Shown here: piece by piece, positions 3,891 through 64,000 of the stretch | Layout of the letters: every line of letters starts with the position of its first letter | Numbering within the stretch: the first letter of the stretch is position 1 | Assembly: GCA_049322615.1 (NCBI GenBank) | Contig: JBMORX010000001.1 | Location: 6,715 to 70,714, forward strand | Length of the DNA stretch: 64,000 nt | Reading direction: 5' to 3' | Source: Patescibacteria group bacterium | GTDB lineage: Bacteria > Patescibacteriota > Microgenomatia > CAYGWK01 | Program-made: the position numbers and the translations under genes | Notes under the pieces: generated by a model | The model's database searches: none | Told to the model about the DNA's origin: nothing | What the model saw: only the letters and a program-made list of their open reading frames with translations

Positions 3891-4439
3891 TCACTGAGAC
3901 GCGGAACCCCGCTTAGCGGGGCGCAGAGACGCGGAAATTTTCTGCGTTTCCGCCTGCCCGCCAAGGCTTACGCCATCAGGCGTTGGCAGGCGGGCGGTTA
4001 CAATTTTTCCTCCCGCTTTTTCGATCTTTGCCTTAGCTCCCTTAGAACACGGCAGTTTGACAATTAAGGGAATTTTAACCTCGCCTTCACCTAAAATTTT
4101 AACATTTTTGGATTTGCTATCCTCAATTCTTAATATTCCCTTATCTTCCAGAGTTTTTAAAGTAACCTCTTCTTTGGGAGAAAAAAGATTCAGATACTTT
4201 AAATTGACGATAATTGGTTTTTGGGAACTTGGTTTGAATTTGCCTTTCCCCCTTATTAAAGGCAGTCTTTTAAGAAGAGACTTCTTTATTTTTGTTCCCT
4301 CAAAAAGAAAAGCTATTTTTCCCCTCGCTTTCTGACCTTTGGCGCCCCGACCAACAGTATGACCTCCCTTGCCTGAACCGATTCCCCGACCAATTCTTTT
4401 TTTAGATCTAGTTGTTATTTTAGGTAGTTTGCTTAACAT
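3891..4439 (-). CDS. rplO: 50S ribosomal protein L15 with a roughly 35-aa C-terminal extension encoded by a GC-rich repeat element
   Basis: [25 protein letters not shown]15 motif; 182 aa against a typical ~145; the extension covers 3896..3997. Confidence 0.9.
3896..3997. repeat. GC-rich palindromic element, copy 1 (core 3896..3953 plus an extra inverted repeat to 3997), translated as the L15 C-terminal tail
   Basis: gagacgcggaaccccgcttagcggggcgcagagacgcggaaattttctgcgtttccgc; about 65% GC in a roughly 38% GC context. Confidence 0.8.
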
Positions 4440-4472
4440 ATAAGTTACTTAAGTCACTTAGGTAACTTAAGT
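4440..4472 (-). repeat. CTTAAGTNA repeat spanning the rpsE 3' end (it encodes KLKLPK) and the spacer before the rplO AUG
   Basis: ataagttacttaagtcacttaggtaacttaag. Confidence 0.8.
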
Positions 4473-4894
4473 TTTTTTAATGCCTCAAAAGTGGCATAAA
4501 CATTCGAGGCTTGATTCCGAGTTCCTAAGATTTTTGAAACAATGTCTCTAATTCCTGCCGCTTCAACCACTGCCCTGACTGCTCCTCCGGCAATAACTCC
4601 TGAACCTTCAGGCGCTGGCTTAAGCAAAACTTTCGCTGCTCCAAGTTTAACATAAACTTGATGAGGAATAGTTGTCTCTCTGGTAGGCACAGAAATTAGA
4701 TGCTTTTTAGCGTAAGTTGCTCCTTTTAAGACGGCTGCGGAAACATCAGGAGCTCGGCCTAAACCTACTCCAACTCGACCTTTTTTATCTCCAACAACCA
4801 CTAAAACAGAAAAGGAAATTCTGTTTCCGCCTTTGGTTTTTTTGGAAACCCGATTTACCTGAACTACTTTTTCCTCAAATTCTTCGTTTTCCAT
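4454..4894 (-). CDS. rpsE: 30S ribosomal protein S5
   Basis: S5 dsRBD and C-terminal domain ([17 protein letters not shown]). It is followed directly by rplO with no L30 gene. Confidence 0.95.
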
Positions 4895-4928
4895 AAGTTA
4901 CTTAGGTTACCTAAGTCACTTAATTGAC
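4895..4928 (-). repeat. CTTAAGTNA repeat in the rplR-rpsE spacer, immediately before the rpsE AUG
   Basis: aagttacttaggttacctaagtcacttaattgac. Confidence 0.8.
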
Positions 4929-5222
4929 TTAGAACTCTAACCCTCCTTCCCTGGCTCCTTCGGCTAGGGCTTTTACTCGACCATGATATTTAAATCTTCC
5001 TCGGTCAAAATAGACTTTTTTTATACCTTTTTTCAAGGCTTCCTCGGCTAACAGTTTTCCAACCTGACGACTTCTCTCGATTTTACTTAAGTTACCTAAG
5101 TCACTTAAGTTACTTAAGTCGTTTACCGCCACTAAAGTCTGACCCTCCTCATCGTCAATAATTTGCCCATAAATATATTTATTTGAGCGAAAAACCGAAA
5201 GTCTCAGACGGGTTCTTTTCAT
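4929..5222 (-). CDS. rplR: 50S ribosomal protein L18 (contains an in-frame 9-bp-periodic repeat insert [11 protein letters not shown])
   Basis: L18 fold motifs ([17 protein letters not shown] ... [24 protein letters not shown]). Confidence 0.9.
5085..5128 (-). repeat. CTTAAGTNA repeat inserted in frame inside rplR (encodes [12 protein letters not shown])
   Basis: ttacttaagttacctaagtcacttaagttacttaagtcg, with a 9-bp period that preserves the reading frame. Confidence 0.8.
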
Positions 5223-11514: not shown

Positions 11515-12188
11515 ACTTTTTCCTCCTCACCTTTCTCTGGGCTCTCCATTTCTTTCTGCACCCTCTGCCTTGCAGGTTTCTTAATAATCAAAAGCCCCTT
11601 TTTTGCTCCAGGAACCAAACCCTTAACTAAAAGTAGATTTTTCTCAGGCAAAACTTCAAAAACTTGCAAATTCCGCACTGTTACCCTTGCCCCACCCATT
11701 CTTCCAGCCATTTTCTTACCTTTTAAAACTCTTCCTGGAGTGGTGGTTGAGCCAATTGAGCCTGGAGCCCTTTCTCTGTCTGACTGACCATGAGTTTTAG
11801 GTCCTCCGGCAAATCCCCATCTTTTAACCACCCCGGCAAAACCTTTGCCTTTGGAAGTGCCCGTAACATCAACAATATCTCCAGGTTTTAAAACATCCCC
11901 AACTTTAATCTCATCCCCAACTTTAAGATTAGCGCTGATTTCCTGCTGATTAGCGCTGACTTCTCGCAAAAAGCGGGGGATAATTTTTAACCCCGCTTTT
12001 TTTATGTGCCCTAAAATTGGTTTCTTGGTCTTTTTTTCTTTTTTTTCACCAAATCCAAGCTGAACTGAATCTTTTTTAATTTGAACCACGAAACAGGGAC
12101 CAGCCTGAATTTGGCTTACTGGGATTCGCTCTCCTTCGCTGGTAAATTTTTGCGTTTGTCCTAATTTTATTCCTAAAATCGTATCCAT
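11511..12188 (-). CDS. rplC: 50S ribosomal protein L3
   Basis: L3 signature (KGKGFAGVVKRWGFAGGPKTHGQS). Confidence 0.95.
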   Translation of the reverse strand: MDTILGIKLGQTQKFTSEGERIPVSQIQAGPCFVVQIKKDSVQLGFGEKKEKKTKKPILGHIKKAGLKIIPRFLREVSANQQEISANLKVGDEIKVGDVLKPGDIVDVTGTSKGKGFAGVVKRWGFAGGPKTHGQSDRERAPGSIGSTTTPGRVLKGKKMAGRMGGARVTVRNLQVFEVLPEKNLLLVKGLVPGAKKGLLIIKKPARQRVQKEMESPEKGEEEKV

Positions 12189-12225
12189 AAGTTACTTAGG
12201 TTACTTAAGTCACTTAAGTATTACC
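12189..12225 (-). repeat. CTTAAGTNA repeat immediately upstream of the rplC AUG
   Basis: ataagttacttaggttacttaagtcacttaagtattaccc. Confidence 0.8.
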
Positions 12226-14128: not shown

Positions 14129-14256
14129 ATTTTTTGAGTTAAAAAAGAGGTCTAAACCTCAAATCTTTTTGTATTTTACAGGCTTATTTTACAGATGTCA
14201 AGCCCCGATTGCAAATCGGTGTATAAGTTAAGTCAAGCACCTTATTTGTAACTTCT

Positions 14257-14290
14257 TTGTATCATTGTCATAGTACAATAGTACAAAAAC
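14257..14290. promoter_or_regulatory. operator-like motif copy A (contains TGTCATAGTACA, the reverse complement of the core), ~130 bp upstream of island-1 promoter
   Basis: tttgtatcattgtcatagtacaatagtacaaaaac. Confidence 0.55.
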
Positions 14291-17799: not shown

Positions 17800-17914
17800 G
17801 TTGCCTCTCGCTTTTGAAGTTAAAACTTTCGAAAAATTCCCACCTAAAAGGCTTTACATCTGCGGACACAATTTCGTCCAATAGGATGAGATTATATCGA
17901 CAAACTTGACAAAA

Positions 17915-17950
17915 TTTTTGTATCATTGTACTATGACAGTGATACAAACA
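17915..17950 (+). promoter_or_regulatory. operator-like motif copy B overlapping a TTGACA promoter and ending at the ATG of the TrpR/YerC-like gene
   Basis: cttgacaaaatttttgtatcattgtactatgacagtgatacaaacatg. Confidence 0.6.
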
Positions 17951-18474
17951 TGGGAAGAACAACTTACTATCCAAGAATTAAAAGAATTGAAAAACTAAAA
18001 AGAGAAGAGATTTTGGAATTGATGTTTGACTTACTTAATGCCTTTCGCCTAGTGAATTCGCCCCTTGAGACGGCTTTTTTAATCCAAGATCTTTTAACTG
18101 CCAATGAAATTAAAAATTTAGCCAAAAGACTTCGTATCGCCAAACTTTTATTGGAAGACAAAACCCAAAGAGAGATTGCCCAGGAAGTCAAAGTAAGCTT
18201 GGCGACGGTCACCAAAGTTAATTTGTGGCTGATGCAGGGAGGAGAAGGATTCAAAAGAGTAATCTCAAAACTGCCAAAAAAATACCAAATACCAAAAAAA
18301 CTGCCGCCGCGACCACTAACTTTTAATCTTCCGGAAACTCTTTTAATTTTGGCTTCTTATGGTTTAGCCAAAAGACAGGAGAAAAATTTGGAAAAATTCC
18401 TTCAAGGAGTTGAAAATAAACAAATCCTTGATAGAAACCTTCGCGAAGTCTTTGATGAAGAATTCAGAAAATAA
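17950..18474 (+). CDS. TrpR/YerC-like helix-turn-helix DNA-binding protein (ATG at 17950 preferred over the track's TTG at 17926)
   Basis: LLTANEIKNLAKRLRIAKLLLEDKTQREIAQEVKVSLATVTKV follows the Trp-repressor-like YerC/YecD family pattern; the gene is flanked by operator-like motifs. Confidence 0.6.
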   Translation: MGRTTYYPRIKRIEKLKREEILELMFDLLNAFRLVNSPLETAFLIQDLLTANEIKNLAKRLRIAKLLLEDKTQREIAQEVKVSLATVTKVNLWLMQGGEGFKRVISKLPKKYQIPKKLPPRPLTFNLPETLLILASYGLAKRQEKNLEKFLQGVENKQILDRNLREVFDEEFRK

Positions 18475-18480
18475 CTCTTC

Positions 18481-18510
18481 TGTACTACTGTACTATGACA
18501 ATAGTACAAG
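18481..18510 (+). promoter_or_regulatory. operator-like motif copy C, downstream of the TrpR-like gene in the convergent gap with rpsG
   Basis: tgtactactgtactatgacaatagtacaagg, immediately followed by AAGGAGGT. Confidence 0.5.
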
Positions 18511-26808: not shown

Positions 26809-26912
26809 GCCCTGAACCAGAATGAAATTCGGTTCAGGGCGCAGACCCCGTATACTCGCCCCTCGGAGGCGAGGACGTAGACCTCGCGACGAGGTAAGAG
26901 TTATACGGGGTC
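26809..26912. other. GC-rich multi-hairpin element between divergent promoters of rpoB and the 26971 gene
   Basis: A perfect 10-bp-stem hairpin gccctgaacc-N12-ggttcagggc, then an 11-bp closing stem gaccccgtata...tatacggggtc enclosing two hairpins (ctcgcc-cctcgga-ggcgag and acctcg-cga-cgaggt). Confidence 0.6.
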
Positions 26913-29603: not shown

Positions 29604-29652
29604 TAGGAAAGACCGGCCACGCGGGGCTGTCCCACCCCGAGGTGGAAAAACG
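29604..29652. repeat. diverged copy of the composite intergenic repeat (gattttagg ... gcggggc ... ccgaggtggaaaaa)
   Basis: gggtgattttaggaaagaccggccacgcggggctgtcccaccccgaggtggaaaaacg shares modules with the 57.5-62.3 kb repeats. Confidence 0.5.
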
Positions 29653-35597: not shown

Positions 35598-35608
35598 ATT
35601 ATAACGCT

Positions 35609-35688
35609 AAGACGCTGAACCTCGCTTCGCTCGGCGCAGAGACGCTAAAAATTTTGCGTTTTTGCTAAATTCTACGTTTTTGCGTTTC
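35609..35688. repeat. GC-rich palindromic element, copy 2 (same orientation as copy 1), between ruvX and the Zn-ribbon gene
   Basis: aagacgctgaacctcgcttcgctcggcgcagagacgctaaaaattttgcgtttttgc. Confidence 0.75.
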
Positions 35689-56132: not shown

Positions 56133-56786
56133 TTAATCAAATTCGGCGATGAGTTTATGCCAACGGCAAAATTCACACTCGGTATGTTCTTTTGGAATTG
56201 GTCTTTGGAGGGTTTCGACGGCTTTGTTAATTAAATTTTGGGCATCATTTAAATTTGTTTTTATTTCTTCTGGAGTAATTTCAAATTTGAAGATTCCGCC
56301 TTCCTGCTCACTTTTTGGGTAAAAATAAATTAAATAAGAAGTTCCGTCGGTTTTATAACCATTTTTATCCAAAAGAAAAGTATAAAGATCAAGCTGGTGT
56401 TGATAAAATTCTTTGGTTTCCCCTTTTGCCTCCGATGCTCGGGTTTTAAAATCAATCGGAATAAAAATTTCGCCATCTTGCAAAACATCATCAAAAGCAC
56501 CGTATAAGGACCACTCCTCGTTTCCTATTCTTAAGCTTGTTTTCCAATTTCGCCAGCGATTTAATAATTCTTGATCATCGAAAAGAACACCTCTGACTTT
56601 TCCTTGTATTTCCGGAGGTAATTTTCCTCGATATTTGTCAAAATATTCTTTAATAATTAAATCCATTCCGCCAGGAAGTGAGGGAAAAGCCCCACCCGGT
56701 CGTTTATGACCGCGATTTACATGAAGCCAAAAACACCGCGGACACTCTTTATAAATTCCCAACAGAAACGGCGAAAGAAAAATCAT
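56133..56786 (-). CDS. Cas4-like / RecB-family PD-(D/E)xK nuclease with a four-Cys (Fe-S) cluster
   Basis: N-terminal CPRC, C-terminal CEFC, a core IPIDFKT (D-x-K) and a QLDLY (QhxxY) motif, the DUF83/Cas4 signature. No CRISPR array or other cas genes are in the window. Confidence 0.6.
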
Positions 56787-56789
56787 AAT

Positions 56790-57506
56790 TCAATTCTTCC
56801 CTTCTTCACTCAAATTAAATTCTAAATTAATAATTTTTGCTAAATCCAATGACGCTTTGCCTAAACGAACCATCTTGCTCCTTAATGGTCGCAAAGGCTT
56901 ATGCTCGGCAAGATTGGCTAAGGCCTCACCTACCGAAATTAATCCATTAACAACAATAAAAGCCGAGGTTTCGGCATCAAAAGTTCGAAGCTCTGGGTCT
57001 TTTTCTTTTTCATCTTCCAACCTTGAAGTTAAAGCCCGGTAAATTTTGGCTCGAATTAATGGTTGGTAATGAGAAATAACCTCCATATTTTCCAAAACAA
57101 GCCTTTCATTAGTCTCGATAGGAACTATCTCTAAATTTTTTAAAAGTTTTTCTAATCTTTTTGAAAATTTTTCAACTAAATTATAAAGAGGAAATTTTTC
57201 TGGTTCCGGGGGTGGCTCGTAATCCGAATCGTCAATTTTACTTAAATCAATTCCCCATTTTTTCGCCCCTTTTTCGATAAGTCTCATTGTCTTTTCAAAA
57301 CTTTCTTTAACCGTCACAAAAACATATTCCCAAGAGTCAGGATCTTTACCTTGCTTTATCCACTTTTCTCTTGATTTTTGCTCGTCCTGAAAAACTTTGC
57401 AGATTTCCGTTAAGTTGCATCTCTCGCACCAACGATCACAATAATTAAAAGGAAGATGATAAAAATCTTTTTTGTCAATCCAGGGTGGTCTTATTGCTCC
57501 AGCCAT
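56790..57506 (-). CDS. hypothetical protein with an N-terminal Cys cluster (YCDRWCERCNLTEIC)
   Basis: 238 aa; 4-nt spacing to the Cas4-like gene suggests an operon. Confidence 0.5.
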   Translation of the reverse strand: MAGAIRPPWIDKKDFYHLPFNYCDRWCERCNLTEICKVFQDEQKSREKWIKQGKDPDSWEYVFVTVKESFEKTMRLIEKGAKKWGIDLSKIDDSDYEPPPEPEKFPLYNLVEKFSKRLEKLLKNLEIVPIETNERLVLENMEVISHYQPLIRAKIYRALTSRLEDEKEKDPELRTFDAETSAFIVVNGLISVGEALANLAEHKPLRPLRSKMVRLGKASLDLAKIINLEFNLSEEGKN

Positions 57507-57526
57507 TTCATTCTAAATTGTAGCAA

Positions 57527-57565
57527 ATTTTGGGGCGGGATTTTAAGAGGTCAAAAAGTTGGTTT
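57527..57565. repeat. composite intergenic repeat R, copy a (partial)
   Basis: ttttggggcgggattttaagaggtcaaaaagttgg. Confidence 0.6.
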
Positions 57566-57730
57566 TATTCTTTGCCGAAAAGGCTTTTAATCCAGTTTAT
57601 AAGTGAGCGCAACCAGTCTATGAGAGAGACGGCTCTATCAACTTTCTCTCGACCCTCTTCCAGTTTATCTAAAGTTTCCATATTCCAATTATACAACAAC
57701 CCTTCCCAGGAAGTTTACCCTGAATGAAAT

Positions 57731-57772
57731 GAGGGGGAATTTTAAGGGCCCAAATCCCGAGGTGGAAAAAAC
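57731..57772. repeat. composite intergenic repeat R, copy b
   Basis: gagggggaattttaagggcccaaatcccgaggtggaaaaaac. Confidence 0.65.
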
Positions 57773-57780
57773 TTTGCCAC

Positions 57781-57809
57781 TTGACAAGGGGTTTATTTTA
57801 GGTATAATA
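57781..57809 (+). promoter_or_regulatory. near-consensus sigma70 promoter TTGACA-17-TATAAT on the plus strand
   Basis: ttgacaaggggtttattttaggtataat. Confidence 0.6.
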
Positions 57810-57850
57810 TCGTCTTGCAGTCGAAAAGGCTGTTTATCAACCGCCTTCAG

Positions 57851-57880
57851 TCCCGACACTTGTCGGGATTTGGCTTTTTA
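57851..57880 (+). terminator. intrinsic terminator (cccgac-actt-gtcggg plus a T-run) ending a roughly 65-nt transcript from the 57781 promoter
   Basis: tcccgacacttgtcgggatttggcttttta. Confidence 0.55.
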
Positions 57881-58569
57881 AGAAGACCTAACCAAGAATT
57901 CTTCTCTAAGTTTCCAAACGTCTTGATAGTGATCTATATTCTTTGAGGTTCTAAGCTCATCAGCCACATGTCCCCTTCTAGATAAAACCAGCACTCTCTT
58001 CTTATGCTTTTTAAGAAAGGATGTTAAATAGACAAAATCACTATCTCCAGAGAAAAGTACGAAGGTATCAAAGTTATTCAGCCAGGAGACCGCATCAACT
58101 GAAATCTCAACGTCAAAATCGGCTTTACGCTCATCTGCCATTCTATTTTTATGTCCACACTGTTCGCATGTGATAGTCTTTCCTCTGCCCAAGATAGTTT
58201 TTATTGGTTTCCAAACAACGCGATATCCGTTTTTCTTTAAAAACATAAGAAATTTATCATGCGACCTTGTCCCAAAACGAGCTGTATAGAAACTTATACT
58301 TGAGACCCGAGTATTCTTTCTAAAAAATTTGTGAAGCTTCTTATAGTCTACTCGCCAAAGGTTTTTATTCGCTTTCCAATTTGCACCTTCGGCGAGATGT
58401 TTTGGCGGGGTAAAACCCAATGCTTGAACCGATTTTCGAGGTTTGCCGCATCAATATAAACAGCCACCAGACCCTGTAGTTGACTAATTAGTTCCCTTGT
58501 TATCTGTTTTTCTGCCGTTTTTAAACTCTTACCTTTTCCTGGTTCCTTTTTTCTTTTCATTAAATCCAT
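57878..58569 (-). pseudogene. NYN-domain (LabA/YacP-like) ribonuclease gene split by a frameshift near 58400-58440
   Basis: The 73-aa ORF (58348..58569) carries the N-terminal AVYIDAANL motif. The 180-aa ORF (57878..58420) continues in another frame with RVDYKKLHKFF ... FSGDSDFVYL and a CEQCGH zinc-ribbon insert. The overlap lies at a GGG/TTTT/CCCC/AAAA run. Confidence 0.6.
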
Positions 58570-58596
58570 TGTAACAGATTTTAAGGAGAGAAATTT

Positions 58597-58670
58597 TGGG
58601 GCGGGGCGGGATTTTAAGGGCTCAAATCCCTAGGTGGCGAACCTGTTTTACCTCCAAGGTGGAAGAGTCA
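58597..58670. repeat. composite intergenic repeat R, copy c
   Basis: ttttggggcggggcgggattttaagggctcaaatccctaggtggcgaacctgttttacctccaaggtggaagag. Confidence 0.75.
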
Positions 58671-58682
58671 CTTTCCTCCACA

Positions 58683-58740
58683 ATTTTAATCAAATTTGGC
58701 AATAAGCCTATACCAACGGCAAAATTCGCACTCGGCAACA
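58683..58740 (-). pseudogene. remnant 3' end of a second Cas4-like gene (encodes ...ECEFCRWYRLIAKFD*)
   Basis: ttaatcaaatttggcaataagcctataccaacggcaaaattcgcactcgg aligns with the 3' end of the intact Cas4-like gene at 56130..56180 (attaatcaaattcggcgatgagtttatgccaacggcaaaattcacactcgg). Confidence 0.6.
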
Positions 58741-58778
58741 AAAACGGCGACAAAGAAATCATAATTAAAAATAATGGT

Positions 58779-59228
58779 TCAACTATGTCCTGAGGGTATA
58801 TTTTGGCCAACATAGTTAGCCAAAAATCTTGCCTGCCAGTTAATTTTTCCGACCTTTCCCCTAGATAAATTAGATAAATTTGGAAGTCTGTCTCGCTGAT
58901 CCCGGTATAGTAGATAAAACTGCGCCTCATTAGCTATCGATACAAAAGCATGTGCCATCGATTCAAATACTGCCTCTTCCACGGTTCTATCTCCCCATTG
59001 AGGTCCAGTTTCATACTTCCATTGTTTATTAAATCTCTCTTTAAAAAGAGGACTATCTAAGAATTGTTTAAGAGATTTATAAGGATCCTTTATCCTAATA
59101 TCTTTAGGAGGGCGTTTATTCCAAAATGCTATGATCTGTTCTGGCTTAAAGTGCATATCCAAAATAATCGCTAGGGCTACTTCTGGCGAAGATTGCATAG
59201 TTAGTTCTGATAATTGCTCATTACTCAT
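58779..59228 (-). CDS. hypothetical protein (149 aa)
   Basis: Preceded by an extended -10 (TGATATAAT on the minus strand at 59252..59262); its 3' end runs into a gene remnant and repeat element. Confidence 0.4.
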   Translation of the reverse strand: MSNEQLSELTMQSSPEVALAIILDMHFKPEQIIAFWNKRPPKDIRIKDPYKSLKQFLDSPLFKERFNKQWKYETGPQWGDRTVEEAVFESMAHAFVSIANEAQFYLLYRDQRDRLPNLSNLSRGKVGKINWQARFLANYVGQNIPSGHS

Positions 59229-59327
59229 ATTTACAGGACGGAAGAGATTATATCATAATGATTTAAATCATTTAAACAATTTGTGGGAGATTTTAATTAA
59301 GACAAGGGAAGTTTAAAAAAACTCACT

Positions 59328-59365
59328 CGGGGCGGGATTTTAAGGGCGCAAAGAGGTGTGAACCT
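59328..59365. repeat. composite intergenic repeat R, copy d (5' module only)
   Basis: ctcggggcgggattttaagggcgcaaagaggtgtgaacc. Confidence 0.65.
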
Positions 59366-59382
59366 AGAATTTTATAAATACT

Positions 59383-60228
59383 TCATTGCCTTTTCCCAAA
59401 GACTTCAATTCTCATGTTTGGATAAGAAAGGGAGGAGACAGGTAAAGAAAATTCCTTGGCAAAAATTCCCCTCTTTTCTAACCCTTCCTCTTCTTCTACT
59501 ACCAGGGTTGTCAGGAGGAAATTAGCCTTTGTAGAAATTCTTCCAAATTGATCAAAAAATAAACTCTCAAAAAATAAGTCTGAAGGATAACAATAAACCA
59601 GATCGGCTGTTAGAAGTAAGCCATCTTCCGTCTCTTTTAATAATCCTAATTGACTATATGGGTTTGGCCCAGTTTCTCCTAGAACGCAGGAGATTTTTTC
59701 CTCCACTGTCGTTTCTAAAGAAAGTCTGCCCGGTGATACTAAAAGCGAGTCCACATAATCCTTGAAACTGTCAGTCTCCAAACAACCATATTTGGAAAAA
59801 CGCCTTTTCAATTCTTCAACCATCTTTTCTTTTAACTCGCCAGCCAACTGGGGAATATAATAAGAACCAATCGCAATCTTTCCTTCGCTGAAAACTAACC
59901 CTTCTTTATATGCCCTAAAATTTATTTCCTGGGCGATCGAGGCTAAGTCTTCGCTTGCCTCAATCCCAAAACTCTCAAATCCTGCCAATCCCGCTAAAAC
60001 CATCACTGTTCCATCTCCACAACCACAATCTAGAGAAATCGGTCTGGGTTCTGGAAACATTTCTCGAAGCTTAATAAATCCTGCCAAAAGAGAGGGTAAT
60101 ATTTCCTTTGGCTCGTTAAGATATGAGGGCCACCAATGCTCCAACTTACTTAATTGGGGATTTTTCTCTTCGAGCAGTCTAAGCACTTTAGGAATACAAT
60201 CAGATGGAACCTTTCCTCTCTCTTTCAT
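59383..60228 (-). CDS. class I SAM-dependent methyltransferase
   Basis: Motif I ISLDCGCGDGTVMVL. Confidence 0.75.
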   Translation of the reverse strand: MKERGKVPSDCIPKVLRLLEEKNPQLSKLEHWWPSYLNEPKEILPSLLAGFIKLREMFPEPRPISLDCGCGDGTVMVLAGLAGFESFGIEASEDLASIAQEINFRAYKEGLVFSEGKIAIGSYYIPQLAGELKEKMVEELKRRFSKYGCLETDSFKDYVDSLLVSPGRLSLETTVEEKISCVLGETGPNPYSQLGLLKETEDGLLLTADLVYCYPSDLFFESLFFDQFGRISTKANFLLTTLVVEEEEGLEKRGIFAKEFSLPVSSLSYPNMRIEVFGKRQ

Positions 60229-60315
60229 TGGCTCATACGGGCAGCGAGTTGGATTATATCATTTTTTCAAGACAAGCAGGACCATAAAAAATTGCCTTCA
60301 GTAATCTCATGGCAA

Positions 60316-60436
60316 GCGGGGCGGGATTTTAAGGGCTCAAATCCCTAGGTGGCGAACCCCATAAACCAGAAGAAACGGTTTAGGGCCATGAACCGATTAA
60401 ATCTGGTTCATTGGCTATTCCACCTCCCAGGTGAAA
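60316..60436. repeat. composite intergenic repeat R, copy e (full length, ~120 bp, four hairpin modules)
   Basis: gcggggcgggattttaagggctcaaatccctaggtggcgaaccccataaaccag...ggtttagggccatgaaccgattaaatctggttcattggctattccacctcccaggtg. Confidence 0.8.
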
Positions 60437-60455
60437 ATTTCTAGTATATCTTTTT

Positions 60456-61523
60456 TTAATAAGAGAGTAACTTTATTAACTTCTCGAATATATAAATTCT
60501 TCTATTTTTAAAACGCACTATTTTCACTACGTCTAACTCGCTAAATTTTGTCAATAACCTCCTTATAGTTCTTTCTTCAATTTTCGAGCTTTTACTAACA
60601 TCTCTCACCTTAAATATGGGCATCCTGAACATGAAATTTACAATCTTATAGGTATAGGGAGATTTTAGATGTCCGGTTAAATTTTCGACTTCTTTCATCA
60701 ATGTATTAATTTTTGAGATTAAATTTTGCGTTTCTTTTGCTTGGTTCTTAACAGAAATTAAGAAAAACTTCAACCATCTTTCGTACTCTCCTGTTTTGTC
60801 AACTTGATTTAAAGCATCTATATACCTATCCCTACGTTTATCAAAATAACCACTAATATAAAGAGTTGGTTGGAAAAGTAATTTTTTCCAAAATAAGTAT
60901 AAAGGTATAAGTAATCTACCAATTCTCCCATTGCCGTCTTGAAAAGGGTGTATTGCTTCAAATTGATAGTGAAGAATCCCAACCTTAATTAGAGGATGTT
61001 CACCGTCTCCAAGGAGATATTCTTCTAAATTTTCCATATAGTCTTGAATTAATAATGCCTCGAGTGGAATATAGGTTGCTTTCTCAATAGGCTCTCCTTC
61101 TTTTCCAATCCATACTTGTTCTTTTCTGAAATTTCCTCTTGTTTTATGCCCTCTGGTATTCTCCAAGAGTATTTGGTGAAGACCCTTTATAAAACTCAAG
61201 TCAATAGGTGTATTTTTCAGTTGTTCAATCGCCATGACCATTGCTTTTTTATAATTAGAAACCTCAACAGTATCGGGATGTTTAATTTCGCCTGTTGCTT
61301 CATATTTAAGCACGTCAGAAATAGTGCTTCTCGTGCCTTCGATTCTCGAACTAATAGTTGCTTCCTTAATCAAAAGAGGAGAAATTAAAATTTGAGGGTT
61401 TGGTAAGCTCCTTTGAAGTCCATCTAACCTACCTAATTCAAAAGAAGCGCTAGCTAGCTCGTTTGACAAGGTTGAGAAATTATATTTCGCTAACAATTTA
61501 GGTGGGTGATGTGGTTCTATCAT
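60456..61523 (-). CDS. Fic family protein (AMPylase-type) with a C-terminal winged helix
   Basis: Canonical Fic motif HPFQDGNGRIGRLL. Confidence 0.9.
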   Translation of the reverse strand: MIEPHHPPKLLAKYNFSTLSNELASASFELGRLDGLQRSLPNPQILISPLLIKEATISSRIEGTRSTISDVLKYEATGEIKHPDTVEVSNYKKAMVMAIEQLKNTPIDLSFIKGLHQILLENTRGHKTRGNFRKEQVWIGKEGEPIEKATYIPLEALLIQDYMENLEEYLLGDGEHPLIKVGILHYQFEAIHPFQDGNGRIGRLLIPLYLFWKKLLFQPTLYISGYFDKRRDRYIDALNQVDKTGEYERWLKFFLISVKNQAKETQNLISKINTLMKEVENLTGHLKSPYTYKIVNFMFRMPIFKVRDVSKSSKIEERTIRRLLTKFSELDVVKIVRFKNRRIYIFEKLIKLLSY

Positions 61524-61640
61524 TTTACGCTGATATTAACATATCCCGGACACTTTGTCAACTTTCTGTCCGAAAACCTCGATCTCCGGACACAAGTGTC
61601 CGAAAATAAGAACTTAAATAAGAAAATTAATTAAGGTACC

Positions 61641-61665
61641 TATTCCACCTCCGAGGTGGAAAAAT
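61641..61665. repeat. composite repeat R, 3' module only (ctattccacctccgaggtggaaaaa)
   Basis: A CCACCTC-c-GAGGTGG palindrome shared with copies b, e, f and the 29.6 kb copy. Confidence 0.6.
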
Positions 61666-61674
61666 TAATTCTCT

Positions 61675-61905
61675 TCATTTTTTCTTCTTTAAAAGTTTCT
61701 CAAATTCCTCGATGCTTATGTTGGCAAGTTTTAATTGTTTTCTGAGTAAAAATGGAGCAATCTCTTTATGTCTTGGAATAGAAATATTATAAGGACATTT
61801 ATCACTCTTCAAAATTATATGAGCACCATCGTCGCTTCTAATATAAAAATCGGCCCGTTGAAAGGCCACAACAACTTCTTTCCAAGAAAGTCCGACTAAC
61901 TTCAT
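61675..61905 (-). CDS. hicA: HicA-like mRNA interferase toxin
   Basis: 76 aa; W...GAH...ISIPRHKEIAPFLLRKQLKLANIS follows the HicA pattern (GSH...TVPHPKK...GTVKSILKQAGL); immediately downstream of a HicB-like gene. Confidence 0.65.
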   Translation of the reverse strand: MKLVGLSWKEVVVAFQRADFYIRSDDGAHIILKSDKCPYNISIPRHKEIAPFLLRKQLKLANISIEEFEKLLKKKK

Positions 61906-62142
61906 TTAGGCAGCGGCAAATACTTTGGGAAGCGAAACCCGAACGTTTCTGACTTCACCTACTTCTTTTTTCTCTTCTTCAGCCCTTACTTTCAGAAACG
62001 CTTTAATTGCCTTTTTTACATTGGAGACCGCCTCTCTTTTTGTTTTTCCTTGAGACATACAACCCGGAAGATTTAAAACCTCGGCAACGTAACCCTTATA
62101 TGCTTTATCGTAGATTAATTTAATGGTAAAAGTAGAAGCCAT
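61906..62142 (-). CDS. hicB: HicB-like antitoxin (RNase H-like fold N-domain)
   Basis: YDKAYKGYVAEVLNLPGCMSQGKTKREAVSNVKKAI matches the HicB/UPF0150 pattern. Confidence 0.65.
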   Translation of the reverse strand: MASTFTIKLIYDKAYKGYVAEVLNLPGCMSQGKTKREAVSNVKKAIKAFLKVRAEEEKKEVGEVRNVRVSLPKVFAAA

Positions 62143-62208
62143 GTTAAATAGATTTTATCCAATTTTCGGCTTTTTGTCAACGTCGAATTAGGTGGAGAAA
62201 TTTTTCGC

Positions 62209-62336
62209 GAGCGGGAGTTTAAGGGCTCAAATCCCTAGGTGGCGAACCCCATAAACCAGTCCGCCAACCGGCGAACGGTTTAGGGCCATGAACCGATTAA
62301 ATCTGGTTCATTGGCTATTCCACCTCCGAGATGGAA
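62209..62336. repeat. composite intergenic repeat R, copy f (full length; near-identical to copy e)
   Basis: gcgggagtttaagggctcaaatccctaggtggcgaaccccataaaccagtccgccaaccggcgaacggtttagggccatgaaccgattaaatctggttcattggctattccacctccgagatgg. Confidence 0.8.
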
Positions 62337-62395
62337 GGATAAGTTTGTATTATATTCGATTTTTTAGAAAATGAGTAGGAAACCAAAGAATGTGG

Positions 62396-63079
62396 TTATT
62401 TTTGAGATTGGTAGTAAGTTCTGCCCTTTTTCGTAATCTCCCAAATCCCACGAGGAGAGTCTTTCATTAACAGTCCTTCTTCTTTCATTTTCTGCCGTTC
62501 CCACTGGGCGGCATTTTCCCATCTGATAGATGTTCCTGACGGAAGCCTTCCTAAATCTGCGGTGGTTAATTTATCCTTTATTTTGCTTTTTATTTTTTCT
62601 AAAACTTTTTCCATTTTCCCTCTCCCGCCCATTTCTATTAAGCTCTCCAAAATAGGAATTCGATATTCTTTTTGGGGGGTTCTTTTTATTTTTTTTCTTG
62701 TTGATTTCGGAAACTCTTCCCGCTCTCCTGCTACGGTCACTACTCCTTTCTCTTCCAGTTTATCTATAGGTATATTCCTTAGGAGCAAACTTACGTTTTC
62801 TGAAAACTCTTTATAACTCTCCTGAAGGAAGATAAATTTTTCTCCTTCCCGCTCGTATGCATATTTTTCAGCAATTTTGTGTACCCCCTCTTCACAATCT
62901 GATAATATCATCAATGGATTCAATTCCCATAAATCTAATATTTCGGCACTTCGATGACTCCGCCTATATTGGACCAGTGTAGCTCTAATGTTTGTCGTTT
63001 TTCCTATTTTAACATCGGAGATTTTCAATCCGCTATAAGACAAATCAGCAACTTTTATCGCATAAATCATTTCAGCCAT
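62396..63079 (-). CDS. GIY-YIG-like N-terminal domain protein with a C-terminal Mrr_N-like winged helix
   Basis: MIYAIK ... KIGKTTNIRATL resembles GIY-x10-YIG; the C-terminus TTADLGRLPSGTSIRWENAAQWERQKMKEEGLL resembles restriction-system wH domains. Confidence 0.45.
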   Translation of the reverse strand: MAEMIYAIKVADLSYSGLKISDVKIGKTTNIRATLVQYRRSHRSAEILDLWELNPLMILSDCEEGVHKIAEKYAYEREGEKFIFLQESYKEFSENVSLLLRNIPIDKLEEKGVVTVAGEREEFPKSTRKKIKRTPQKEYRIPILESLIEMGGRGKMEKVLEKIKSKIKDKLTTADLGRLPSGTSIRWENAAQWERQKMKEEGLLMKDSPRGIWEITKKGRTYYQSQK

Positions 63080-63303
63080 AATTTACCTCCACAAACCCGT
63101 CTTGCCCTAATTTTACCCCATAAATTTGCTTTCAGCAACTTACTGGGCAAGCCGCCCTCTCCTTTTTATCAATCAGAGGTTTTTCTGTTTCGTTTTGGAA
63201 ACCTATCTTGGTTCGAGGCGGAGGATGAGGCGGGCAGTTAAAACTTTATCAGCTTTTAATTGAAGAGGGCAAAAAAACCAGCGTAGGCGCCCTCAGGTCG
63301 AAT

Positions 63304-63953
63304 CTAATCTTGAATAAAACTGACATCGCTCATAAATTTTACTTCATCATTATTTTTTAACACTTCGTCTTCTGTTGGGGGTCTATCATTTAAGAGAAAT
63401 CCTAAAGTGCCCGGATGGAATTTTTGATGAATTTCTGGGTAAGAAGAAAAGATAAAATTTAAAAATTGAACAAATGTTAAGTTTTTGGAAACTATCGCTT
63501 CTTCAAAGCTTTTCCCGGTAATTCTTTGCAATCTGTCATCATAAAAAATCTTAATTTTAATTGGTCTTAAGAGTTTTCTCATCATAAACCTAAAAGTGGT
63601 TTCTCCCAGCCAAAGCAAGTTTCTTGGTCTTTGAGAATCTCAAAAGCTTTACGGCACGAAGAGTCAAGTTTGACATACTCGATTAACATCGCGACGACTT
63701 CTTCTATAAACCCGCCGACAGTTCCGTCAGAATCGTCAACACCGCCGAAACTTAATTTTTTATCCAGCCTCAAAAGCAATTTAATAACAAGCTCTGTTGT
63801 CTGGAGGCTCACCGGCAAATCTGAAACTATCACCGCTAAACGATTGCATCCTTCAGTAAGCGATGCTTGGTAGGCAAACCAAATTTTAGAAGGACCATTA
63901 TAGGGCTTGATATAACGGGCTGCCTCAGAAATCAAACTTTTAACTTTTATCAA
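63304..63953 (-). CDS. hypothetical protein, possibly one frameshifted gene (ORFs 63582..63953 and 63304..63618 overlap in different frames)
   Basis: Two consecutive overlapping ORFs with no recognisable family. Confidence 0.35.
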
Positions 63954-64000
63954 TTGATTTTTGTCCAGCTTACCCAGATGACCACTGCATTTTATTTCAA

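Follow-up and report, generated by a model that had tools for sequence, protein, structure and literature searches.

A mosaic family of hairpin-forming repeats associated with single-gene modules in a Patescibacteria genome

A stretch of 64,000 nucleotides from a Patescibacteria MAG (hereafter the window) carries a family of repeats that are composed, as a lineage-specific mosaic, of small DNA elements able to form hairpins, and that show no sequence relationship to attC, to REP or to any family in Rfam. Between 57.5 and 62.4 kb there are seven copies, in an array of genes flanked by nusA-SNase and dnaJ-dnaK, and one diverged copy lies at 29.6 kb. Sequence comparison supports cassette-like behaviour of the array, and its membership in the integrons is not supported. 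Our preferred reading, to which we assign a probability of roughly 0.45, is that the repeats are mobile hairpin elements of the REP/BIME or IS200/IS605 kind, which act as break-and-join points of self-promoted single-gene modules.

CPR bacteria are difficult to culture, have very small genomes and are believed to contain few mobile elements of the classical types; to our knowledge, little has been learned about how defence genes are acquired and lost among them. As the present repeats mark the exact borders where single genes come and go, are common to several genera and have no relation to known families, they offer a concrete, searchable signature of the flexible genome, and they point to a candidate DNA-processing enzyme. 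Should that enzyme indeed process single-stranded hairpins and carry cargo, it would deserve attention as a tool as well as for what it reveals about mobile-element evolution; should the repeats be only structural, they would still constitute a new lineage-specific family of the REP/BIME type.

Read on the gene strand, the repeat begins with a 19-bp palindrome (TTCCACCT-N3-AGGTGGAA), followed by a linker with ACC at its end and by the module-1 hairpin, which has a 7-bp stem and terminates in the nearly invariant core CTTAAAATCCCGCCCC. This 16-nt core is the best-conserved piece of the repeat and often persists without its pairing partner, and ACC stands 5' of the module-1 hairpin in 12 of 14 copies. 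The copies are mosaic and truncated, and carry different subsets of these modules. Copy c (58603..58664, minus strand, as are all lettered copies and array genes below; E=3e-18) represents the short form, with the palindrome, the linker GGTTCGCCACC, the module-1 hairpin and the core. Copies e (60316..60436) and f (62209..62336) represent the long form, in which the short form is joined by a nested doublet, confined to these two copies, of a third hairpin type (CCATRAACC..GGTTYATGG), its members, hairpins 2 and 3, being paralogues. The near-identity of these two copies reported in an earlier note on this DNA is confirmed (95–98%), apart from a 10-nt extension that lengthens hairpin 2 of copy f by an extra helix. 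Its reading of the 3' arm of hairpin 3 as ggttcatgg has to be amended to ggttcattgg, with a bulge, and the ccacctc-c-gaggtgg palindrome that it described is perfect in copy g only.

Copies c and e are identical over about 45 nt, and in copies a, c and f the repeat continues leftwards into AAATTTT(CTCC). Copy a (57532..57561) consists of the core only, whereas in copy b (57731..57775; E=7e-8) the 3' end of the palindrome is joined directly to the module-1 hairpin and core. Copy d (59329-59365, within a repeat-derived stretch at 59329..59382) has the core after a decayed hairpin half, with a second degenerate core, TATAAAATTCTAGG, immediately 3' of the stop codon of a methyltransferase-like gene, and copy g (61641..61665; E=2e-5) has the palindrome TTCCACCTCGGAGGTGGAA followed by TAGGTACC, without module 1. 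The diverged copy h (29604..29652; nhmmer E=4e-7) is a short form situated 5 nt past the stop codon of a gene in a restriction-modification region. A solo hairpin of the type of hairpins 2 and 3 (CCCTGAACC-N12-GGTTCAGGG; 26810..26839) occurs upstream of rpoB, which shows the long form to be a mosaic of separate hairpin families.

All window copies are intergenic and in a single orientation; this uniformity is confounded with a strong gene-strand bias. Each copy lies just 3' of one gene and 5' of the next promoter, giving the order [gene]-[repeat]-[promoter]-[gene] that the earlier note had recognized, and the promoter boxes cited there are present in the array. The modules are self-contained single genes with their own -10 box; promoter-like sites as a class are not enriched (26, against 19.2 ± 4.8 in shuffles). 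The first module is the gene at 62396..63079, whose product has a weak N-terminal match to T5orf172 (GIY-YIG-like) and a clear C-terminal Mrr_N domain, and which adjoins ThiS-like, SWIM, DnaJ and DnaK genes. Along the array from there come HicB (61906-62142) and HicA (61675-61905), a SoFic-type Fic defence protein (60456-61523; SoFic E=3.5e-109), a 281-aa methyltransferase-like protein (59383-60228) and a 149-aa protein of unknown function (58779-59228), the last two each forming a module of their own. Copy c is abutted by the 3'-end remnant of a second Cas4-like gene (58686..58735; family D18, 86% identity), beyond which lies a frameshifted NYN nuclease gene (57878..58569), with its N-terminal VYIDAANL in a frame other than that of the remaining domain. 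By direct reading of the sequence, copies b and a enclose a module consisting of a 38-aa ORF with its own TATAAT box (57565..57681). The gene of the CxxC protein (56790-57506) has its TACAAT box 9 nt downstream of copy a and is followed by the gene of a Cas4-like PD-(D/E)XK nuclease (56133-56786). The cargo had been described as typical of the mobile or defence genome; it includes toxin-antitoxin and defence genes (HicAB, SoFic), but part of it is conserved rather than accessory among relatives: the CxxC protein and the Cas4-like nuclease, in differing order and contexts, as well as an NYN gene.

The copies, at least seven intergenic ones and the diverged one as previously listed, far exceed chance expectation. 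Allowing up to 3 mismatches, GGGCGGGATTTTAAGGG has 6 matches in the window against 0.30 expected and TTCCACCTCCGAGGTGGAA 7 against 0.01, and a degenerate 24-mer has 6 against none in shuffles. Across 66 kb of readable genome there are 8 copies, 7 of them inside 5 kb. By an ORF-based count, the repeat occupies 4 of 5 array spacers and none of the 21 other window spacers of at least 50 nt (Fisher p=3e-4); by eye, a copy is present at every gene junction of the array, and the sole exception outside it is copy h, whose spacer was concealed from the count by a spurious ORF. The repeat is absent from the housekeeping spacers of the window, so the uniform spread near housekeeping genes that would have counted against the earlier proposal is not seen in these 64 kb.

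These empty spacers argue against a different explanation, possible though somewhat doubtful in our view, that the repeats are passive structural RNA or DNA elements (U-less terminators, insulators or 3'-end stabilisers), of the sort suggested for REP/BIME and BOX elements, that merely accumulate where genes are shuffled by other causes. The position of every copy between a gene end and the next promoter fits this explanation, as do the stable hairpins (z=-3.6 for copy f on the gene strand) and the lack of a recombinase in the window or fetched loci; copies a-d, however, fold no better than shuffles, the stems have no covariation support, and the most conserved piece is a core that often has nothing to pair with. 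The organism does use canonical terminators (e.g. 57849-57880), yet the terminator scan detected no U-run at the palindrome or at the module-1 hairpin, its only match within a repeat being the extra helix of copy f, and the total of terminator-like sites (8) is no higher than in shuffles (8.1). Lacking a U-run on the transcribed strand, the hairpins are not intrinsic (Rho-independent) terminators, and in that specific form the earlier suggestion of a repeat-borne terminator does not hold.

The same tests bear on the proposal, highly unlikely in our view, that the 120-nt unit represents a structured non-coding RNA, whether as a family of small RNAs or as a cis-regulatory element of 3' UTRs or 5' leaders. 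The four hairpins of the long form, and the fact that hairpin 2 of copy f, compared with that of copy e, gains one more helix and is not disrupted, would suit such an RNA. Most copies are nevertheless cut down to pieces unable to fold, and the long form occurs in this genome alone among the genomes compared. The Rfam search proposed in the earlier note returned no family at the gathering score, nor at E up to 10, no tRNA or tmRNA was found, and covariation in the stems was no better than in shuffles; a known structured or tRNA-like RNA was rejected on these grounds. Between genomes, the palindrome arms and the core are conserved without compensatory change. Hence it is the sequence and not the structure that is conserved, which fits recognition by a protein or recent spread better than an RNA fold.

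Whole-collection scans at the DNA level gave no repeat matches, and the repeats of relatives were recovered through protein-anchored loci. The family was thereby traced to at least six related genomes (L015, L018/L019, L020 (=L012), L032, L043/L044 and L045), the carriers being several related Microgenomates-type genomes. All non-palindromic profile matches lie on the gene-direction strand, and the orientation of the repeat ignores the direction of the gene it flanks, as seen with the opposite-strand ORF104 in L012 and a 342-aa gene in L043, an independence that again speaks against passive elements. Copies are homogeneous within a genome and different between genomes. Some also occur between lineage-conserved genes, upstream of SNase in L015 and after the CxxC gene in L020; copies so placed favour the passive explanation and make a general role in intergenic regions possible. 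A diverged counterpart of copy a occupies the same position upstream of the orthologous CxxC gene in L032.

The locus varies among relatives, in agreement with the earlier proposal that the repeats border exchangeable single-gene units. The window, L020 and L032 carry their genes in permuted orders. The methyltransferase-like gene has 81% nucleotide identity to its only homologue, in L018, where the neighbours differ; cores are present on both sides, and copy d aligns with the one downstream of the homologue. The Cas4-like gene occurs in four contexts at amino-acid identities of at least 90%, with adjacent housekeeping proteins 51–78% identical. From such comparisons of different genomes, modules appear to have moved to new sites.

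A near-clonal population has a 557-bp segment that is either present (L012/L020) or cleanly absent (L011/L022), with flanks 99.7–100% identical. The segment is delimited exactly by the outer edges of two hairpin copies in direct orientation, both of its ends being copies of module 1. The empty allele keeps no repeat copy at all and reads AAGACC|GAAATTT, with ACC present, and the ambiguity of the breakpoint amounts to 2 nt (CC) only. In this single event, the insert agrees with a hairpin-ended element of the IS200/IS605 type in its similar, direct hairpin ends, its precise junctions with no sizeable target duplication and the short ACC target kept at the empty site. Passive elements leave unexplained why the indel ends exactly at the outer edges, without a residual copy. 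It is the one clean pair of insertion and empty site found, and its module was always at the same locus. The empty allele could in principle also be the product of a 2-nt microhomology deletion. N-gaps have been placed by two scaffolders at such polymorphic sites.

Under the preferred reading, that of mobile hairpins as break-and-join points, a candidate trans-acting enzyme would recognise the hairpin and core, make one cut 3' of ...GCCCC and another behind ACC on the 5' side of the hairpin, and move whatever lies between two such ends, with a logic like that of IS200/IS605 'peel and paste' transposition or of REP/RAYT mobilisation on single-stranded DNA. The elements themselves have ACC or CCC at their ends, often with RAAATTT next, so that new insertions would land beside old ones; insertion of this kind would build both the mosaic units and the array. 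Effects of the hairpins on transcript ends, if any, would be secondary. A MITE was rejected, since the two ends show no sequence relationship in either the short or the long unit, and no duplication flanks the copies.

IS200/IS605 and REP/RAYT systems have subterminal imperfect palindromes at both ends, are cleaved at some distance from the hairpin, use a short target of fixed sequence and are linked to the replication strand (PMC3201880, PMC5027513, PMC3333891). The present elements share with IS200/IS605 and its transposase-less derivatives (PMC3201880, PMC5027513) a pair of similar, directly oriented subterminal hairpins, one at each end, the lack of a classical terminal inverted repeat, duplication of at most 2 nt, a fixed short sequence (here ACC) 5' of the left end that is kept in the empty site, and uniform orientation relative to the chromosome. 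Unlike those elements, they carry ordinary accessory genes, and a search of the window and of all retrieved loci gave no tnpA or tnpB, nor any other transposase, RAYT or recombinase. Their ends lie 3–6 nt from the hairpins, whereas the ends of IS608 lie 19 and 10 nt away.

Enterobacterial REP/BIME with RAYT (TnpA-REP; PMC3333891, PMC8266576) is similar in its short imperfect palindromes, intergenic only and in variable mosaic units, in its homogeneity inside a genome and difference between genomes, and in hairpins that resemble IS200/IS605 element ends; the nested doublet of copies e and f likewise resembles a REP pair. The present repeats differ in having no sequence relation to those families and no RAYT in the loci examined, in clustering, within the 64 kb, at accessory-gene borders and not over all operons, and in that a segment with a gene in it, bracketed by two copies, is present or absent as a whole. 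Pneumococcal BOX elements are also among the closest known systems.

A strict integron-like system, in which the repeats would be sites for a conservative tyrosine or serine recombinase encoded elsewhere, with circular cassettes and a CALIN-like locus, appears unlikely. The resemblance to integron arrays and CALINs is considerable: co-oriented small genes are each followed by a 25–130-nt repeat, toxin-antitoxin and defence genes (HicAB, SoFic) are among the cargo, repeats are homogeneous within the array, as copies c, e and f illustrate, modules are reshuffled between genomes, and CALINs without a nearby integrase are common (PMC4889954). However, the attC-like nature proposed in the earlier note does not hold, as a search extending 25 nt around each of the eight copies, on both strands, found neither of the attC boxes, R'' (RYYYAAC) and R' (GTTRRRY), and the unit is predicted to fold into 2–4 separate local hairpins, with weakly pairing ends (-9 to -14 kcal/mol), and not into one bulged hairpin. 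A complete integron was likewise rejected: the genes have their own -10 boxes instead of being promoterless, and no recombinase was found in 66 kb. The integrase sought beyond 64 kb is also missing from the next 2.4 kb, which encodes SWIM, DnaJ and DnaK, and no integrase or recombinase domain was detected in the window ORFs that were scanned. Recombination between direct sites would, moreover, leave one site, which the empty allele lacks. The host has a very small genome, and genomes of this size class yielded no complete integrons (PMC4889954).

A broader version of the preferred reading, in which Microgenomates-group CPR/Patescibacteria have their own gene-cassette system, independent of integrons, with self-promoted single genes for defence, toxin-antitoxin and nuclease functions moved between ACC-type targets by paired CTTAAAATCCCGCCCC-ending hairpins, is offered with considerable doubt. 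If it were true, the hot spot beside nusA would be a programmable store of accessory genes in minimal genomes. More speculatively, the Cas4-like nuclease and the CxxC protein, which recur in the variable region, may be candidates for the mobilising enzyme.

That the array order is an artefact of a MAG contig mis-joined at repeats is very improbable. Contigs of the independent Logan assembly of SRR32167786 do break in or beside repeats, at window positions 62298, within copy f, and about 57609, and the module order across the 120-nt copies e and f is that of the MAG contig; the Logan contigs nonetheless agree with the window at 100% to either side of the array, and other genomes and assemblies contain the repeats with their flanks as well. 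A mis-join would in any case affect the order of modules only, and not the existence of the repeats.

In the pdif modules of Acinetobacter plasmids, genes are bracketed by XerC/XerD sites. Discrete modules including toxin-antitoxin pairs, short protein-binding palindromic borders and varied contexts are features held in common, whereas the present palindrome is 8-3-8 against 11-6-11 in pdif, and the present sites are direct and chromosomal where those of pdif alternate.

The window belongs to a 110,692-bp contig of a Patescibacteria MAG, and outside the array its genes are housekeeping ones; ribosomal proteins, EF-Tu and alanyl-tRNA synthetase were assigned there by Pfam match, whereas gene size, tblastn and conserved gene order in relatives identified rpoB/C, EF-G, PNPase, IF2 and NusA. 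Followed along the transcribed strand, the array is entered from DnaK, DnaJ, a SWIM protein and a ThiS-like protein. It then runs through a T5orf172/Mrr_N protein with copy f of the modular hairpin repeat behind it (62209-62336), HicB-HicA with copy g (61641-61665), a SoFic-type Fic protein with copy e (60316-60436), a methyltransferase-like 281-aa protein with copy d (59329-59365), a 149-aa protein and a Cas4-like 3' remnant with copy c (58603-58664), a frameshifted NYN gene with copy b (57731-57775) and a 38-aa ORF, ORF38, with copy a (57532-57561). The exit side is formed by a CxxC protein, a Cas4-like nuclease, SNase and NusA. Reading of 57000-64000 and mapping of the repeats bear out the seven copies that the earlier note had placed between 57.5 and 62.4 kb, along with its diverged copy outside the array, copy h (29604-29652). 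PDB sequence searches with the CxxC protein and the 149-aa protein returned no matches, and an AlphaFold model of the CxxC protein computed without an alignment was unusable (pLDDT 43).

On the gene strand, the short form of the repeat, exemplified by copy c, begins with a palindrome, TTCCACCT-N3-AGGTGGAA, continues through a linker, TAGGTTCGCCACC-TA, and closes with a hairpin, GGGATTT-GAGCCCTTA-AAATCCC, followed by GCCCC. The final 16 nt, CTTAAAATCCCGCCCC, are its most conserved part; this core, in which the module-1 hairpin ends, frequently persists alone, copies a and d being examples. The long form, seen in copies e and f, has 71 and 81 additional nt, respectively, between palindrome and linker. 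The insert comprises two mutually paralogous hairpins in inverted arrangement (CCATRAACC..GGTTYATGG) and aligns with its own reverse complement, and a solo hairpin of the same type is found upstream of rpoB (26810-26839); at least three hairpin families thus contribute to the mosaic unit. In copy f, hairpin 2 has a helix that copy e lacks, copy g consists of the palindrome only, and copy b resembles the product of a deletion between the two AGGTGG/CCACCT motifs. A faint likeness to the core region is seen in GGTTCGAGGCGGAGGATGAGGCGGGCAGTTAAAAC (63200-63240), which lies where the ThiS-like gene gives way to the first gene of the array; it may be a very decayed copy and was left out of the copy count.

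The copies are far in excess of chance in the window, with 6 occurrences of the 5' motif against 0.30 expected, 7 of the palindrome against 0.01, and 6 of a degenerate 24-mer against 0. All share one orientation, each follows closely on the stop codon that ends a minus-strand gene, and a copy occupies every gene junction of the array (Fisher p=3e-4 on a conservative count). None occurs in the 21 other window spacers of at least 50 nt in an ORF-based count, copy h, whose spacer was masked in that count by a spurious ORF, being the sole exception outside the array. The main rival to the reading developed below takes the hairpins for structural elements, with a part in termination, insulation or stabilisation, that do no more than mark a region prone to recombination. 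This would account for the position of the copies, but it leaves unexplained why the bare core survives without a pairing partner and why the other spacers of the window lack the repeat. No U-run follows the repeat hairpins, though canonical terminators exist in this organism. The core was also considered as a fixed promoter element; its spacing from the -10 box, which ranges from 9 to ~66 nt, led to rejection of this idea.

Comparisons with known classes of elements gave no assignment. Rfam yielded no family at the gathering score nor up to E=10, and a tRNA/tmRNA search of the repeat found none, which disposes of a tRNA or tmRNA fragment or attachment site. An alignment of nine copies drawn from five genomes shows 79% pairing in the two main stems and conservation of the stem arms at the sequence level, with covariation no higher than in shuffled controls; a structured RNA is thus an unlikely explanation. 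The array does resemble an integron in behaviour more than it does any other system, and the comparative loci described below uphold the cassette-like character proposed in the earlier note. Its attribution to the integron family does not stand: no copy has an attC core box within 25 nt on either strand, folding of the unit gives separate local hairpins rather than a single bulged one, and no integrase was found among the window ORFs scanned nor, beyond 64 kb, in the next 2.4 kb recovered from an identical Logan contig. A true integron is therefore unlikely, and so is an assembly artefact as the origin of the array.

The degenerate 24-mer, which matches all six module-1 copies of the window and misses the variant of its relatives (GAGAACTTAAAATTC...), gave only 3 + 3 chance matches in species-representative genomes and JGI metagenomes; the family was therefore not detected in these collections by this pattern. 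Five scans of viral contigs with different parts of the repeat likewise gave nothing, or chance matches in coding sequence. Despite these negative scans, the family is present in loci of related genomes fetched through protein anchors, the closest of which have an SNase only 74% identical to that of the window. It is seen as one short form upstream of SNase (L015), as the core in every spacer plus one short form (L018/L019), as five copies (L020, identical to L012) and as two (L032), and it is also present in L043/L044 and L045. A profile search of nine non-redundant loci gave ~28 matches, with all non-palindromic ones on the gene-direction strand. Relatives carry the slightly different variant and the window copies are near-identical among themselves, and thus the family is homogenised within a genome. 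As a mosaic hairpin family of CPR bacteria the repeat is new and lineage-specific, and in kind it stands nearest to REP/BIME and IS200/IS605-derived elements.

Comparison of the locus across relatives, as the earlier note had proposed, revealed the same genes in permuted order and changed neighbourhoods. The order NYN, ORF38, CxxC, Cas4-like, SNase in the window corresponds to Cas4-like, CxxC, NYN, SNase in L032, and to CxxC, an 83-aa gene, NYN, Obg, ..., a different PD-(D/E)XK gene and SNase in L020. The 281-aa methyltransferase-like gene has one homologue only among 5.8 billion proteins; its counterpart in L018/L019, promoter included, is 81% nucleotide-identical to the window and has the repeat core on both sides, but it stands among other genes, with Lactamase_B, 73-aa and 113-aa genes on its upstream side and a CxxC ORF on its downstream side. 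The Cas4-like protein retains at least 90% identity across four contexts (window, L032, L043/L044 and L045), whereas the housekeeping neighbours of window and L032 are only 51-78% identical. No other gene of the neighbourhood is as well conserved between these two genomes: the Cas4-like protein has 91% amino-acid identity (window 56133-56786, L032:1956-2609) against 70% for NusA, 74% for SNase, 62% for PNPase and 51% for IF2, which points to either recent transfer or unusually strong constraint. Remnants of Cas4-like genes adjoin copy c in the window (58686-58735, the final 16 codons) and lie upstream of DUF5674 in the Shapirobacteria-like L020 (L020:4718-4789, the first 24 codons); they are scars of earlier rearrangements at these junctions. 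Horizontal transfer was not deduced from base composition, the slight G+C deficit of the array (0.34-0.40 against 0.40-0.45) not being diagnostic.

A further case is a presence/absence polymorphism among strains, of the kind that the earlier note suggested looking for. In a Shapirobacteria-like population with flanks 99.7-100% identical, the interval from the PD-(D/E)XK gene to a 73-aa gene holds a 557-bp segment in L012/L023, L020, L021, L025, L028 and L029, and lacks it in L011/L022, L013/L024, L014 and L026. The filled allele reads AAGACC|TAAGGATTTTTGAGAACTTAAAATTCTGCC...ORF104 (opposite strand)...GATTTTGAGAACTTAAAATTCCCGCCCC|GAAATTTGG, and the empty one AAGACC|GAAATTTGG; a direct copy of the module-1 hairpin thus forms each end of the segment. 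The right end is the exact 3' boundary of the repeat family, and the empty allele keeps no repeat copy, with a boundary ambiguity of only 2 nt. ACC precedes the hairpin in 12/14 copies and is also found at the empty site, and RAAATTT is often found 3' of the core. Scaffold gaps fall at this very point in L027 and at another polymorphic spacer, Obg-DUF5674, in L033; both alleles occur in groundwater metagenomes, e.g. 3300008095 and 3300025021. Purely structural hairpins would leave unexplained both these exact indel boundaries and an orientation independent of the direction of the flanked gene.

One repeat would stay behind after homologous recombination between two direct repeats, as it would after integron-type conservative site-specific recombination. 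The empty site, being clean, argues instead for another route, in which two hairpin ends delimit the unit that moves. IS200/IS605 elements and, presumably, REPs move in this way, with a subterminal hairpin at each end, cuts a few nt from it and a short fixed target that undergoes no duplication (PMC3201880, PMC5027513, PMC3333891). Under such hairpin-end-defined movement, mosaic units would be nested insertions beside ACC/CCC ends, the array would have grown by successive insertion next to earlier ends, and an excised circle would join ...CCCGCCCC to TAAGGATTTTT... For the mobility reading there is a single insertion/empty pair, whose ORF104 module was found at one locus only, in the same context in all 10 places among the matches listed, and no mobilising enzyme was found in the window or the fetched loci. 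We hold this mechanism, a reasoned proposal, with moderate confidence, a little short of even odds.

The promoter boxes named in the earlier note are present, with -10 boxes within a few nt of start codons. At 57506-57525, 58569-58578 and 57681-57694 they lie only 0-10 nt from the start codon with no Shine-Dalgarno visible, and many genes of the array region look leaderless. A perfect palindrome, CGGACACTTGTGTCCG (61590-61612), is situated between the Fic promoter (TTGACA-17-TAATAT with TG) and copy g, and a half-site of it recurs at the -35 box; the palindrome looks like an operator of the SoFic gene. The region's best promoter match (TTGACA-16-TATAAT, 12/12) lies at 57781-57880 on the plus strand, convergent with the NYN gene, with a predicted transcript of ~65 nt that ends in a canonical terminator (fold z=-5.0). 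In two relatives a consensus-like promoter (L032:4074-4184, L020:3393-3688) likewise converges on the 3' end of the NYN gene. The window transcript may be an NYN-associated antisense or antitoxin-like small RNA.

Other repeats populate the spacers of these genomes. A 9-bp periodic repeat (TTACTTAAG / TCACTTAAG, family D1) forms runs in ribosomal-protein and EF-Tu operon spacers (928-979, 4437-4479, 4890-4932, 5075-5126 and 12184-12217), which could be arrays of candidate regulator binding sites. A 38-nt repeat, TGTATCATTGTCATAGTACAATAGTACAA (family D7; 14249-14286, 17910-17947 and 18472-18509), is found near a Trp-repressor-like gene (17926-18474) and the EF-G/EF-Tu genes. Further G+C-rich families, e.g. 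CTGAGACGCGGAACCCCGC..., ...GGGCAAGCAGGATAAAC and ACTTCGACTCGCTCAGTATAAAC, occur in spacers of the window (3894-3941, 35607-35654), at L020:3393-3688 and in L043 and L045, and one of them underlies an indel polymorphism of 42 nt in the Obg-DUF5674 spacer.
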